4,000 nucleotides of DNA from Naegleria gruberi (lineage: Eukaryota). The notes under the pieces were generated by a model that had not been told where the DNA came from, searched no databases, and saw nothing but the letters and a program-made list of their open reading frames with translations. Shown piece after piece: positions 3 to 4,000 of this stretch. Every line of letters starts with the position of its first letter. Position 1 is the stretch's first letter. The position numbers and the translations under genes are program-made. The stretch lies in assembly GCA_000004985.1 (NCBI GenBank), contig GG739163.1; one strand, 5' to 3'.

Positions 3-800
3 GATGATAATTCAAATGCAGATTACTGCACTCTGTATCCAAACTCGTATGTTTGCTCTCCTCTCTCATCCTTTAACACAACCGAAACTCAGATTACCAA
101 AGTTTCAAATATTACTCAATTAGATTCAAAGACCATCCAGTTTGCCTCAACTTCAACAATTTCCATTTCTTTGCCATCAATCATTTCACAATATCTTCAA
201 AATACTGATACATCACTCAAGAATGATTCAGTTCAAGTTGTCTCCTCAATTGCCGAAAGTAAGAATTCAAATAGTGATGCAGCTGTCATTTCATCCATTG
301 TTTCTTTGGTTTTATTGAAATCAAGTTCAAGTGAAAAGATTACAGTTCAAAATCTTGAAAAACCAATTTCACTATCGTTTGAGAATGTTACTCTAACAGT
401 TTCAAGTATTGAAACTTTGAATATTTCATGTGTTTATTATGAGGAGAATTCTAAAGAATGGAAATCAGACGGAATGGAAACTGAGATTAAAAATTTAGAA
501 ATTCACAACCTTGCAGATGGAAATATCACATTAACACTCTCCATCCTATGTAACACCAATCACTTGACTTCATTTTCTGTAATTGACCAAAATTACAAGA
601 AGGCAGCCACCAAACCAACACCTCAACCTGCTCAATCAAATCAACCAACCAAGGATGCTGAAATACTTCAAGATAATACTGTTTTAATTGGAGCTATTGT
701 AGGCGCAGTTGGAGGAGTATGTGTAATTGCAGTTGTCATCTCAATAATTATTATTGCTGTTTGTTTATTAAGAAAGAGGAAGAAAGAGGAAACAAATTAA
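3..800 (+). CDS. 5'-truncated CDS for the C-terminal portion of a single-pass type I membrane glycoprotein with a GPS/GAIN-like autoproteolysis motif. The reading frame is open from nt 3 with no upstream stop. The track's 171 start is a TTG, not a real start.
   Basis: The frame beginning at nt 3 continues into the 171..800 ORF and stops at TAA 798-800. Codon third positions are A/T-biased throughout. Sequons NDS, NVT, NIS and NIT sit inside 171-800, and NTT and NIT lie upstream. The motif C87-x9-W97-x29-C127-N-T-N-H-L-T-S-F-S-V is present. A PTPQPAQSNQPT stalk and a 29-residue hydrophobic stretch (LIGAIVGAVGGVCVIAVVISIIIIAVCLL) follow, and the protein ends in RKRKKEETN. Confidence 0.6.
   Translation, partial: DDNSNADYCTLYPNSYVCSPLSSFNTTETQITKVSNITQLDSKTIQFASTSTISISLPSIISQYLQNTDTSLKNDSVQVVSSIAESKNSNSDAAVISSIVSLVLLKSSSSEKITVQNLEKPISLSFENVTLTVSSIETLNISCVYYEENSKEWKSDGMETEIKNLEIHNLADGNITLTLSILCNTNHLTSFSVIDQNYKKAATKPTPQPAQSNQPTKDAEILQDNTVLIGAIVGAVGGVCVIAVVISIIIIAVCLLRKRKKEETN
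429..581 (+). other. GPS (GPCR proteolysis site)-like motif within the CDS. The predicted HL|T cleavage triplet is at nt 561-569.
   Basis: Translated sequence is CVYYEENSKEWKSDGMETEIKNLEIHNLADGNITLTLSILCNTNHLTSFSV. The GPS consensus ends in C-x-C-x-H-L-(S/T)-x-F-(A/G)-V with Trp residues upstream. Here only two of the usual four cysteines are present. Confidence 0.45.
684..770 (+). other. Transmembrane helix followed by a polybasic stop-transfer tail (RKRKK) within the CDS.
   Basis: There are 29 consecutive hydrophobic or small residues (L172-L200 of the track protein), then RKRKKEETN and a stop. Confidence 0.6.
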
Positions 801-854: not shown

Positions 855-859
855 GCAAA
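855..859. repeat. Putative target-site duplication (left copy), GCAAA.
   Basis: Exact 5-mer immediately 5' of the left TIR. The identical 5-mer sits immediately 3' of the right TIR. Confidence 0.4.
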
Positions 860-930
860 TGTTACACGCCACAATTTCCGCGTGGCTTTTACGCCAAAAT
901 TTCCACTCCAGAAAATTCTCGCGTGGTTTA
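860..930 (+). repeat. Left terminal inverted repeat with subterminal hairpin-like motifs (CACGCC-N-AATTTC-C-GCGTGG, repeated).
   Basis: cacgccacaatttccgcgtgg (866-886) recurs as ccagaaaattctcgcgtgg (907-925). acgccaaaattt (891-902) is also present. Confidence 0.5.
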
Positions 931-1253
931 CAAACGCAGAAAAGACCTTAATAGGACATTAATACAAGTTGTAACTAAGCTTAATAAATTGAAGGGCATC
1001 CAACCACTGATGAGTTTAATATATTGTATATTGAACATTATTCTCCTATTACAAAACCAAAGAGTTGAAAAAATATAATCACTACTTTGATGATTTTAAT
1101 CATGAGGAAGATATCTTGTTCCGAGAAATTAACACCACTCATTAATCATTACCTTTAAGCAAAGAGAGTATAATTTCCTGTGAAAATAATATTTAACTCT
1201 TGTATTTATTAAATACAGTATTACATCTTGTAGTATTGTTAATACTTTAATAC

Positions 1254-1285
1254 GGAGAAAATCTCCTTAAAATGAGATTTTCTCC
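1254..1285. repeat. Perfect 12-bp inverted repeat (hairpin) with an 8-nt loop.
   Basis: ggagaaaatctc-cttaaaat-gagattttctcc. The two arms are exact reverse complements. Confidence 0.7.
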
Positions 1286-1539
1286 TAAGGTCCAAATAAG
1301 GGTAGGATTCACACAACCTTCAACGAAAAGACATCATCTACTAATTTTAATATTTAAACTATGAATGGTGGAATGTGAGCAAAGCAATTAATATAGATTG
1401 AAATAAACACACCAAGAATAAAACAAATTGAAAATTTATTGAAAATTGTTGTGAATCAAGGTTGAAAATCAGCAAGATTTCCGACCTTGAAATTTACCAT
1501 GTTGGAAAATTCACTGTTTGTGAATTTTATTGATGGTTC

Positions 1540-1640
1540 GGTGATGATGACCTTAAATATATTTTCCTTAATGATCGGAAGTGAACTTGTTGATGATATT
1601 GATGATAAAAGATTTGATGAAGTGAAAACTCCCCAACTCG
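1540..1640. repeat. Degenerate repeats rich in GATGATGA and TTGATGA.
   Basis: ggtgatgatgacc, gttgatgatattgatgataaaagatttgatgaagtg. Confidence 0.5.
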
Positions 1641-1825
1641 ATGAATACTAAGTGGAAAAATTCCTACTCTCTTGATGGTGATATTAGACATCCCTACTAA
1701 TGATATTGTAGTTTTCGAGAAACCATGACATAAATTTTTCGATGGATTTTTTTTACCCATCGATGATTGATCGAGATGGAAAATGATCGATTGAATGGAT
1801 GAAACATAGAATTTTATCAATTAAT

Positions 1826-1855
1826 TGATCGATCAATCGATCGATCGATCAATGT
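1826..1855. repeat. Palindromic (GATC)n / ATCGAT microsatellite-like tract.
   Basis: ttgatcgatcaa is a perfect 12-bp palindrome and is followed by tcgatcgatcgatcaat. Related ATCGAT/GATGGAT motifs occur at 1742-1800. Confidence 0.7.
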
Positions 1856-1894
1856 TTTCATCAGATATCTCGAAATCCTCATTGAACTGAGCTT

Positions 1895-2004
1895 GAGACT
1901 TTGATTTTGATGATTTCTTTTGTTCTTCCAGTTCAGGTTTGATTTTTTTCTTGCCTTTTTGACTTTTTGAGAGTTGTTTTTTGGTTTTTCAATTATTTTT
2001 TTAG
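1895..2004 (+). repeat. T-rich (polypyrimidine-biased) low-complexity tract.
   Basis: Runs of T with interspersed G or C (tttgattttgatgatttcttttgttcttcc...ttttttggtttttcaattattttttt) give a strong strand compositional skew. Confidence 0.6.
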
Positions 2005-2899
2005 AGTCACAGATTTCATTCTCCCTTACTTATTTCACTAAGCTTCGAAATGGCTTCTCCAAATTGCTCCTTTTTTCATTTTAAATCAACCCTTGGTTAG
2101 ATGTCAGTACAGAGTGCCTTGAAAATCACCTTATTGGTATTACTGAATTCCATATCAAGCTGGGATGGCATCGGAACGATTCATTAAGTTTGAATGTTTT
2201 AATTTCTTTACAATGTGGATCTTCTACTACATCAAATGAGTTTCTCAAGTACTTGACATGATAAAATACAACACTTGAAAAAAGGTTTCCAGTATTGAGT
2301 GCCTTAATTAATGACAAAGGGTGAGAATGAAAGCAAACTTGATAAAATGCTCTTTGAACAAAACCACATGTTCAGGAGCAACAACGTCCAAACTTGTGTA
2401 AGCAATCATTTAATCAAGAACCAACACTCTTATGTAATATTGCAATATCCACATCCCAAATTAAAATCAAGAGTGAGCACTTGACATATTCGTGGAAAAA
2501 GGTTGGGAGCAACCTTCTGTCACTGAGCTCAGAAAGGATTATAAGAAATTTATATTCAAATGCCACATCGGAGGAGATTGGCTTCTAACATGATTTTAAG
2601 CACTTAGAAAACCAACTTTTTGTGTTTTAAGTTCTTTTTTTTGAAACATCATAAGAAATCAAACAACATCTTTTGATAATTAGCTGAAGGTTGAGCCTTT
2701 TCAAATAACATCAAGTCTTTATTCAATATGATTGAAATTGTTGATTAATCATGATCGATTGTTTGATAGATTGATCAAAAAACAGATTGAATAGATGGAT
2801 TTTAATCGATCAACATGGATGAGATGGAAAAAAGATTGGTGTTGAGGTGAAAAAATTTATGTCATGGTTTCTAGGAAAACTACAATACTATGTTGTTGA

Positions 2900-3530
2900 A
2901 ATTCAATCGTCACGATGAAATATTTGGTGAATGATGAATACACCACCAACAAGGTGAAAACTCCAAATATCCAAAAACTATTATTCGGAATGTTGTTGAT
3001 GATATATTTGAATAGTACTATTCGAAGAAAGTTTGGAAGATGATGAAGTACATGTTGAGTTGTGGCATTTGTATATTTTCAAAATATACATGAAGCAAAC
3101 TTGATGAAATGAGAAGATGAATTCCTGCTATTGATATTGGTGATACTATAGAGTATTGCCAACAATCCCTAATTGAAGAAATTCCTAGTGAACAAGTAAA
3201 TCTCCTGATGAGGATGATATTATTATAAACTTGAAATTTTACCCTATTACAACTACTAAGGGAGATTTCAATTGCTCAAATTACTAGTAATATAATAATA
3301 AATATACTGTGATGATGAATTTCAGCTTAATGATGATATTTAGAAGCTTGAAATTTCCGATGATAGAAAAGTACTATAATTCATTCCGAGAAGAAGAACT
3401 ACCATAAAATATTGCTATAATTACTATTGGTGAGATGTATCCCAGCTAATATAATTGAAATATTCCAAAATGATGATGATTTGATTGAATTAAATACCAA
3501 TGATGATGAGTGGAGGTATTTTTTGAAAGT
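2900..3530. repeat. Degenerate repeat region rich in GATGATGA and TTGAAAT (minisatellite-like, imperfect).
   Basis: The motif (a/t)gatgatga recurs at about 2926, 2998, 3040, 3208, 3311, 3340, 3471 and 3501. cttgaaatttYcc appears at 3230 and 3348 and also at 1487. The region has stop codons in all frames. Confidence 0.5.
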
Positions 3531-3616
3531 AATGAGAGGACATTCAAAACAAATTAGGATTCCGAAATGGAGAGTTTAATTTCCTTATTGGATTTTCTAA
3601 TAAGGGTTCGAAAAAG

Positions 3617-3685
3617 TGGCGTAGCGTAATAACGCCAAGAATTTTTTGGCGTGGATTTTCACGCGAGAAATTCTGGCGTGTAACA
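3617..3685 (-). repeat. Right terminal inverted repeat. It is an inverted copy of the left end and carries the same GC-rich sub-motifs in both orientations.
   Basis: acgccaagaattttttggcgtgg (3632-3654) and cacgcgagaaattctggcgtg (3660-3680). The terminal ggcgtgtaaca is the reverse complement of tgttacacgcc at 860-870. Confidence 0.5.
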
Positions 3686-3690
3686 GCAAA
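3686..3690. repeat. Putative target-site duplication (right copy), GCAAA.
   Basis: Exact match to 855-859 and directly abutting the TIR end. Confidence 0.4.
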
Positions 3691-3715
3691 AAAATACCTT
3701 TCTCTCCCACCAAAA

Positions 3716-4000
3716 ATGCAAATCTACAACTGCACAACTTCTCATAGTAATCATACTGATGATTCACTATTATTACAAATGCACGATGATCAAGATCGGC
3801 CTAATACTGTGCTAATGTTATGTGATATACAACCACATGATAGAGAACATTTACTTCATAAAGAATTAACCCTCAAATTTAAACAAGCCTCCGATCGTGT
3901 TATTTTGATTACTAATTCTGTGGAAAGATTTAAAAAACATAGAAAGATTGATGAGAGATTGGTTAGGGACTTGGAATTTGCTTTTAGAGTGGTACAAATT
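3716..4000 (+). CDS. 3'-truncated CDS for the N-terminal 95 codons of an unidentified protein. It begins at ATG 3716, 30 bp after the right TIR, and runs off the window end.
   Basis: The ORF is uninterrupted from ATG 3716 to nt 4000: MQIYNCTTSHSNHTDDSLLLQMHDDQDRPNTVLMLCDIQPHDREHLLHKELTLKFKQASDRVILITNSVERFKKHRKIDERLVRDLEFAFRVVQI. Composition is mixed and non-repetitive, unlike the surrounding low-complexity DNA. The frame is also open upstream from 3536, so the true start is uncertain. Confidence 0.4.
   Translation, partial: MQIYNCTTSHSNHTDDSLLLQMHDDQDRPNTVLMLCDIQPHDREHLLHKELTLKFKQASDRVILITNSVERFKKHRKIDERLVRDLEFAFRVVQI

Follow-up and report, generated by a model that had tools for sequence, protein, structure and literature searches.

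Between two same-strand genes of Naegleria gruberi lies a block of about 2.8 kb whose ends mirror each other, and this raises the question of whether the block is a mobile element and, if so, of which kind. We analysed the surrounding window, a stretch of 4,000 nucleotides. The candidate element occupies positions 860-3685 (2826 bp). Its first bases are TGTTACACGCCA and its last bases are the exact reverse complement of TGTTACACGCCA; it is thus bounded by the inverted repeats TGTTACACGCCA...TGGCGTGTAACA, with the termini TGTTA (860-864) and TAACA (3681-3685). With a slash at the border, the left junction (855-885) reads ...ttcctGCAAA / TGTTACACGCCACAATTTCCGCGTGG..., and the right junction (3660-3698) reads ...CACGCGAGAAATTCTGGCGTGTAACA / GCAAAaaaatacc. 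A repeat search delimited core arms of the terminal inverted repeats (TIRs) of 19 nt at 860-878 and 3667-3685, which match at 18/19 positions (95% complementary). The outermost 26 bp of the two ends had been called near-perfect reverse complements, and indeed the two 26-mers match at 24/26 positions with one 1-base indel. When the ends were aligned locally against each other, the alignment began at base 1 of both termini and covered 66 bp on the left and 54 bp on the right. Its score of 25 compares with a mean of 9.4 (s.d. 2.2) for random 80-bp inverted pairs drawn from the window. Blastn within the window detected 42 bp of inverted similarity at 81% (E 0.001). Beyond the 19-nt core, weaker similarity of the ends reaches about 45-65 bp inward.

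Could such ends arise by chance? The pentamer GCAAA directly adjoins both of them in the same orientation, as the preliminary description had claimed; we read it at 855-859 and at 3686-3690, and on both sides the border of the pentamer is exactly the border of the repeat. Among 1000 dinucleotide-preserving shuffles of the window, an inverted repeat of at least 18/19 appeared in 11, and in a single shuffle one of at least 17/19 was flanked by direct repeats of 4 bp or more. Calculated analytically, the joint probability of repeat plus flanking duplication is about 2e-5 per window. We therefore weighed the possibility that no mobile element is involved, the locus being either a chance inverted repeat plus pentamer in intergenic DNA or a set of inverted repeats with a host function. 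The single copy would fit this explanation, as would the expectation of about 1 exact inverted 12-mer per 4-kb window at this composition; moreover, the 41-Mb genome comprises some 10^4 windows which, if screened, make events of a few 1e-5 possible. However, the value of about 2e-5 precedes the extended alignment, the six motifs confined to the ends (described below) and the TGTNR termini, and the exact coincidence of repeat border and pentamer on both sides also argues against chance. We regard an origin without a mobile element as very unlikely, and 860-3685 as a mobile element of some kind with high confidence.

Table 1. Features of the analysed 4,000-nt window. A dot denotes a feature to which no strand is assigned.
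Feature	Position	Strand	Basis or remark
Left gene, 3' part: C-terminus of GAIN-B/GPS type I membrane protein	3-800	+	Translation, Pfam, phmmer
Left direct repeat GCAAA, putative TSD	855-859	.	Read from sequence; scored in shuffle test
Candidate element, non-coding, TGTTA...TAACA	860-3685	.	Repeats, shuffles, stops, empty protein searches
Left TIR and subterminal region	860-925	+	Core 860-878; repeats, alignment
Motif ACGCCANAATTTC, left end	866-878, 891-903, 912-924	+, +, -	Motif scan
Inner degenerate inverted repeat, left arm	1672-1896	+	Sharp outer edge; 36/37 core 1704-1740
Inner inverted repeat, right arm	2711-2919	-	Core 2850-2887
Motif ACGCCANAATTTC, right end	3667-3679, 3661-3673, 3610-3622	-, +, -	Motif scan
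Right TIR and subterminal region	3610-3685	-	Core 3667-3685; repeats, alignment
Right direct repeat GCAAA, putative TSD	3686-3690	.	Read from sequence
Right ORF, start	3716-4000	+	ATG 3716; extends past window end

The ends share more than their outermost bases. The 13-bp motif ACGCCANAATTTC is present in 6 copies or variants, where 0.43 would be expected, and all of them lie within 70 bp of the ends, three at each. The hexamer CACGCC is confined to the element ends as well. Such repetition of a motif in both orientations at each end is what transposase-binding subterminal repeats typically show. The preliminary description had listed neither this clustering of 13-bp repeats near the two ends nor the position of the insertion in a spacer that would otherwise measure 84 bp.

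At 911-931 the left end in addition repeats its own terminus in inverted, diverged form (TGTTACACGCC... / ...GCGTGGTTTACA). Such a copy could mean that the two ends are independent small MITE-like elements, or that the block is a composite of them, a scenario that the preliminary description had named as one that would speak against its own reading. It found no support in our analysis. Neither end has a flanking duplication of its own: the segment 860-931 is bordered by GCAAA on one side and AACGC on the other, and the 5-bp repeat spans only the whole 860-3685 unit. Furthermore, the right end is without an inward-facing copy of its terminus. Two separate elements are thus an extremely improbable origin of this locus.

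We then turn to the DNA enclosed by the ends, which had been said to encode nothing. All six frames of the element contain stops (47-80 per ~941 codons each), and of the longest open reading frames, one has 119 aa (at 719-1078, where it overlaps the left gene's last part) and the other 97 aa. A six-frame Pfam search of the interior gave no match at E<=1, the Rfam scan found no family above threshold, and the tRNA scan found none. Stop-free segments were also concatenated and compared with 5.8 billion proteins; there was no match at E<=10 and no trace of a decayed transposase. An integrase-like transposase was found neither inside the element nor linked to it within the window. The claim of a non-coding interior was upheld by these stops and empty searches. 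Within the interior we detected a further, degenerate inverted repeat (TATTGTAGTTTTCGAGAAACCATGACATAAATTTTT), whose core had 0 matches when scanned in IMG/VR. The segment 1704-2887, with this inverted repeat of its own, is most readily understood as a possible second element nested inside the first; the length of the outer element without the inner segment is 1.6 kb.

The candidate element starts 59 bp past the stop codon of the left gene and ends 25 bp upstream of the start codon of the right one, and without it the spacer between the two genes would be 84 bp. The translation of the left gene contains a GPS-like CNTNHLTSF, a TM helix and KRKKEETN, followed by the stop TAA at 798-800. Pfam matches to GPS and DAG1 were weak, and the relatives found by phmmer were all Naegleria proteins, the best being a protein of N. 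gruberi (74% identity, E 3e-95) aligned over residues 483-730 of 732. Since this alignment reaches residue 730 of 732, the stop codon represents the natural end of the left gene. A ciliate-type genetic code is out, as the left ORF has CAA/CAG for Gln and a TAA stop exactly where its homologues end. For the right flanking ORF, the protein search revealed no relative. If the site were empty, the target context would read TTCCTGCAAAAAAATACC, and the surrounding DNA is AT-rich. A related metagenome contig from ENA matches the window in the coding part only (79%) and has another downstream neighbour; this contig is a paralogue or belongs to another species. An insertion this near to both genes may change the expression of both neighbours.

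Further copies were sought with the pattern TGTTACACGCCA[N/S]AATTTC. It had 0 matches in IMG/VR, 5 in JGI metagenomes and 6 in GTDB genomes. None was a self-match, and the source genome thus lies outside these collections; all were single matches on unrelated contigs of 42-49% GC or on bacterial contigs, and the similarity ended with the pattern. Neither phage nor plasmid collections contained a blastn match to the element, and in the literature the terminal 12-mer turned up only in an unrelated primer. The reading as a TIR transposon is weakened by these results, because a single copy is known and neither another copy nor an empty site nor an autonomous partner emerged from the viral, metagenome and prokaryote scans. 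It is also weakened because 2.8 kb is long for a non-coding derivative.

A further weakness concerns the footprint itself. The preliminary description had recognised a TIR-plus-TSD footprint of a cut-and-paste element, and these hallmarks proved real and non-random. However, an LTR is marked just as well by TG...CA termini and a duplication of 5 bp, and the preliminary description had overlooked that a solo LTR would leave them too. The locus might accordingly be a solo LTR left by a Gypsy-type retrotransposon, perhaps with a later nested insertion: integrase-mediated insertion would create the 5-bp duplication, and LTR-LTR recombination would leave one non-coding LTR with short TIRs. The TGTTA...TAACA termini, the 5-bp flanking repeat and the non-coding interior all fit such an origin. 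Gypsy LTRs have been described with the TGTNR pattern and 3-6-bp TSDs (PMC2836005, PMC10045372), and Gypsy is annotated in N. lovaniensis (PMC6125883). On the other hand, the ends of an LTR would be expected to resemble each other over a shorter distance than the 18/19 followed by about 45-65 bp observed here, and the motif that recurs three times per end in both orientations points to subterminal repeats. A size of 2.8 kb, or 1.6 kb minus the inner segment, is large for a compact, TE-poor genome, and the window contains neither a partner LTR nor internal retroelement sequence. We consider a solo LTR improbable. A full LTR element is out, with no direct LTR pair and no long direct repeats within the window.

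Taken as a whole, the sequence argues for 860-3685 being a non-autonomous TIR (class II, cut-and-paste) DNA transposon, which we hold to be the probable identity of the block. Both its mobility and its status as a 'novel family' are what we infer from its structure. For such a transposon, a DDE transposase encoded elsewhere in the genome would bind the repeated subterminal motifs and bring both ends together. It would cleave at the TG/CA termini, and the cut ends would be joined to a target opened with a 5-bp stagger. Gap repair would then produce the GCAAA duplication. The element is ordinary but probably unclassified.

Which known group could have supplied the transposase? A 5-bp TSD had been thought unusual and the family had been left unassigned, with Transib named as a group that makes 5-bp duplications and whose CACNATG ends the termini do not obviously match. 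The element resembles Transib in the 5-bp TSD. However, Transib TIRs start with an invariant CAC (the CACAATG heptamer, followed by a 12/23-bp spacer and an A-rich nonamer), and GC-rich targets are preferred (PMC1131882). As the candidate starts with TGTTACA and sits in AT-rich DNA, Transib is out, and the earlier statement on its termini was correct. In hAT termini the third base is always G (YAG...; PMC1131882, legend to Fig. S7); hAT elements, including variants with 5-bp TSDs, are out, since the third base here is T (TGT). Also out on sequence are piggyBac and Kolobok (TTAA) and, for the outer element, Tc1/mariner (TA). A DIRS-like derivative is likewise out, because such elements have long ITRs and lack a TSD.

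IS481EU elements have TNT...AYA termini and TIRs of <50 bp (PMC10045372). The candidate agrees with them in its TGT...ACA termini, in a TIR whose core measures 19-42 bp and in a short TSD (about 4 bp and occasionally 5 in IS481EU), and IS481EU also includes non-autonomous families. However, IS481EU is known from parabasalids only, whereas the host here is Naegleria, and its TSDs are usually ~4, 15 or 25 bp, with 5 bp in 1 of 11 full-length IS481EU-7_TV copies (PMC10045372), against 5 bp in the candidate. Among the IS481EU family sequences (supplement of PMC10045372), the terminal 8- and 11-mers of the element were found at no terminus.

What had been overlooked in leaving the family unassigned is the Ginger2/TDD group, in which Dictyostelium TDD-4 and TDD-5 combine TGTNR termini with a 5-bp TSD. 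This resemblance might be coincidental, and the element might belong to another or undescribed superfamily with 5-bp TSDs, such as Transib, a hAT5-like group, a short-TSD MULE or a new Discoba-specific one. TIRs, a 5-bp flanking repeat and subterminal repeats are after all generic class II features, there is no transposase that would fix the family, and most Naegleria repeats are unclassified. Nevertheless, the TGT start agrees neither with the CAC of Transib nor with the third-base G of hAT (PMC1131882), and we rate membership in such a superfamily as unlikely. It is more doubtful than probable that the element represents a cut-and-paste family new to Discoba whose autonomous partner would be awaiting discovery in Naegleria genomes. 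That family would be either the first Ginger2/TDD lineage of Heterolobosea or a superfamily yet to be classified at all, marked by TGT...ACA termini, duplications of 5 bp and putative binding repeats of 13 bp close to the ends; our doubt applies to both versions jointly.

Ginger2/TDD is the best-fitting group because of the TGTNR termini, the 5-bp duplication and, less clearly, the TIR of about 45-65 bp, and we tentatively suggest that the element was mobilised specifically by an integrase-like (Ginger2/TDD-type) transposase. Several differences have to be set against this. Members of the group encode an integrase-like transposase (H2C2 zinc finger plus DDE), whereas the candidate is without one. 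Metazoan Ginger2 prefers AT-rich RTATAY targets, from which GCAAA differs, although this is one insertion and such a preference has not been described for TDD-4/5. No resemblance between the TIR and a Ginger2 TIR is known, and the likeness is drawn through published descriptions of the group. The literature searched contained no report of Ginger2/TDD in Naegleria or Heterolobosea. The repeat annotation of N. lovaniensis comprises EnSpm, piggyBac, LINE, DIRS and Gypsy, with Ginger2 not among them (PMC6125883). In favour of the reading, the majority of N. gruberi repeats have yet to be classified; Naegleria genomes are compact and TE-poor (PMC12344493).

A TIR family with clear ends would help repeat and gene annotation in Naegleria. 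If the element were tied to an integrase-like transposase, the host range of Ginger2/TDD would stretch into Discoba, and this, if true, would bear on how long ago DNA transposons and the integrases of LTR retroelements became linked. Apart from these points, the element would be an ordinary transposon relic. In its structure, the candidate compares with Ginger2/TDD as follows. Ginger2 termini, like those of Gypsy, are TGTNR (...YNACA), a pattern with which TGTTA...TAACA agrees, and TSDs measure 5 bp in TDD-4/TDD-5, as they do here, and 4 bp in metazoan Ginger2 (PMC2836005). Ginger2 TIRs are 45-297 bp long (PMC2836005), and the TIR of the candidate, with 42 bp at 81% and up to 54-66 bp when gapped, lies around the low end of this range. 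Finally, non-autonomous derivatives such as Ginger2-1N1_NV exist in that group too (PMC2836005), and the TDD elements share with the candidate a protist host.

We analysed the ends of the candidate transposon (window positions 860-3685, hereafter the element; window length 4000 bp, GC about 32%) by repeat search and alignment. A repeat search of the window detected the outer arms (see table). When the outermost 80 bp of the left end were aligned locally with the reverse-complemented outermost 80 bp of the right end, the alignment ran from base 1 at both ends, spanning 66 bp on the left and 54 bp on the right with a score of 25; inverted 80-bp pairs drawn at random from the window had a mean of 9.4 (sd 2.2). 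A few random pairs also scored 25, presumably due to a second, inner repeat. With blastn of the window against itself, the outer-end similarity extended over 42 bp at 81%. The left boundary (855-885) reads ...ttcctGCAAA/TGTTACACGCCACAATTTCCGCGTGG... and the right boundary (3660-3698) ...CACGCGAGAAATTCTGGCGTGTAACA/GCAAAaaaatacc; GCAAA adjoins both ends from outside in direct orientation, and the element termini are TGTTA...TAACA. The inverted ends and abutting pentamer reported in the preliminary description were recovered at the same coordinates. Its 26-mer ends agree at 24 of the 26 positions, allowing for one single-base indel.

As null model we employed 1000 dinucleotide-preserving shuffles of the window. 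Of the 1000 shuffles, 11 held inverted arms matching at 18/19 or better, and in 1 a pair of 17/19 or better was abutted by a direct repeat of 4 bp or more. The joint chance is about 2e-5 per window (1.1% times about 0.002 for the composition-weighted 5/5 flank match), an estimate that leaves out the alignment start at both termini, the 13-mer copies and the TGTTA...TAACA termini. The 13-mer ACGCCANAATTTC occurs in six copies with at most 2 mismatches (0.43 expected), all no more than 70 bp from the element's two ends and in both orientations, and CACGCC is confined to the two end regions. With genome-wide screening allowed for, chance origin is a poor explanation. The main rival is a solo Gypsy LTR, whose TG...CA ends and 5-bp footprint fit equally; Gypsy elements are present in Naegleria (PMC6125883). 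However, the inverted end similarity is long for an LTR and the repeated motif at both element ends also speaks against it; we regard this origin as improbable.

Positions 911-931 comprise a diverged inverted copy of the left terminus (AAAATTCTCGCGTGGTTTACA versus TGTTACACGCCACAATTT), and 860-931 forms a small palindromic 72-bp unit. Since no duplication flanks this unit (GCAAA versus AACGC) and an inward-facing terminus copy is absent at the right end, two independent small elements are unsupported.

Within the reach of our tools, the interior encodes nothing, as previously claimed. All six frames contained 47-80 stops per ~941 codons, and the longest ORFs comprised 119 aa (overlapping the left-gene end) and 97 aa. 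The six-frame interior translation gave no Pfam domains at E<=1, and all 36 stop-free segments of 35 aa or longer, searched as one concatenate, had no matches at E<=10 in a set of 5.8 billion proteins. Neither an Rfam family above threshold nor a tRNA was detected in the interior. The pattern of the inner repeat is suggestive of a second, ~1.18-kb element nested in the outer one, with TIRs that are long and decaying. Its boundary can be read as TA/TTGTAG...CTACAA/TA, with a Tc1/mariner-like TA duplication, or as TGTAG...CTACA with ATAT/ATAC flanks. The inner repeat also holds a palindromic (GATC)n / ATCGATCA microsatellite in its left arm (1816-1853) and a related ATCGAT-rich stretch in its right arm (2753-2813).

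Features in and around the element
Feature	Position	Description	Further details
Left gene, 3' part	3-800	frame 3, open from window start	stop TAA 798-800
Direct repeat GCAAA	855-859; 3686-3690
Outer arms	860-878 / 3667-3685	19 nt	95% complementary
Inner inverted repeat	1672-1896 vs 2711-2919	64% identity over about 225 bp	blastn
Core of inner repeat	1704-1740 / 2850-2887	36/37	outer edge sharp
Right ORF	ATG 3716 to past window edge	no detectable relative

The element is located 59 bp past the left gene and 25 bp ahead of the right ORF; the spacer without it would be 84 bp, reading ...TTCCTGCAAAAAAATACC... The part of the left gene within the window codes for the C-terminal portion of a type I membrane protein, which comprises a GPS-like CNTNHLTSF motif, a transmembrane helix and a basic tail. 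An exhaustive phmmer search revealed 32 relatives, and all 16 that were traced came from Naegleria (N. gruberi, N. lovaniensis, N. fowleri, or metagenome contigs clustering with them). Because the best relative (P0001; 74% identical, E 3e-95) is aligned over residues 483-730 of 732, the left-gene stop represents the natural end. These relatives place the host within Naegleria, nearest to N. gruberi. This GAIN-B/GPS-motif family is expanded in Naegleria, and many relatives are annotated GAIN-B, EGF-like or NHL-repeat. A word-indexed protein search missed the left-gene homologues, among them P0001, which exhaustive representative search found and which is a cluster representative of that very collection; negatives from the word-indexed search are thus weak evidence. 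In an ENA metagenome contig (L012), similarity to the left gene was 79% and restricted to coding sequence, and the gene next to it is a different one. The right-ORF frame is open for 60 codons upstream (3536-3715), across the right TIR, probably by chance, with the GC-richer end contributing; read-out transcription from the element could lengthen the right-ORF protein.

Scans with the TIR pattern yielded 0 matches in IMG/VR, 5 single matches in JGI metagenomes and 6 single matches in GTDB genomes. Each JGI or GTDB match lay in unrelated sequence, with similarity confined to the pattern. The lack of a self-match in these scans indicates that the source genome is absent from the three collections. 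Phage and plasmid collections searched for the element gave nothing. In one JGI contig (Ga0224496_10004272, 1450-1536), the 60 bp after the pattern match contain AAAATTTCTTGTGGCGTTTTCG, vaguely like the subterminal motif. We took this match as coincidence, given that the 8-kb contig has a GC of 43% and lacks a paired inverted terminus.

The observed basis of our proposed mechanism is an intergenic, non-coding element that has exact inverted termini, subterminal repeats clustered at its ends and a direct repeat of 5 bp abutting it. A DDE transposase acting in trans would bind the ACGCCANAATTTC repeats and synapse the ends, and cleavage would take place at the TG/CA termini. Insertion into a target opened by a 5-bp stagger would follow, and repair would then duplicate GCAAA.

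The preliminary description rightly doubted Transib but overlooked integrase-like DDE transposons. While the 5-bp duplication is common to Transib and the element, Transib TIRs have an invariant CAC start (CACAATG, spacer, nonamer), with GC-rich targets preferred (PMC1131882), and the element does not start with CAC. Position 3 of hAT termini is always G (PMC1131882), which rules against this superfamily, since the element has no G there. TNT...AYA ends and short TIRs are shared with IS481EU, known from parabasalids only and usually with duplications of 4, 15 or 25 bp (PMC10045372); the element's termini were not found in published IS481EU sequences.

Naegleria genomes are TE-poor, and most N. 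gruberi repeats still lack a classification (PMC12344493). A previously unnamed TIR family in Naegleria is thus to be expected; that it represents, as a first for Heterolobosea, a DNA transposon lineage of the integrase type, or else a superfamily not yet classified, is possible, if rather doubtful. [quoted passage not shown] Naegleria is not among the reported hosts of Ginger2/TDD, the element is without a linked integrase-like transposase, and its target is not the RTATAY of metazoan Ginger2. Based on its TGTTA start and 5-bp duplication, with a TIR of 42-66 bp around the lower end of the published range, the element would work like Ginger2/TDD, and we consider it a candidate derivative of this group.
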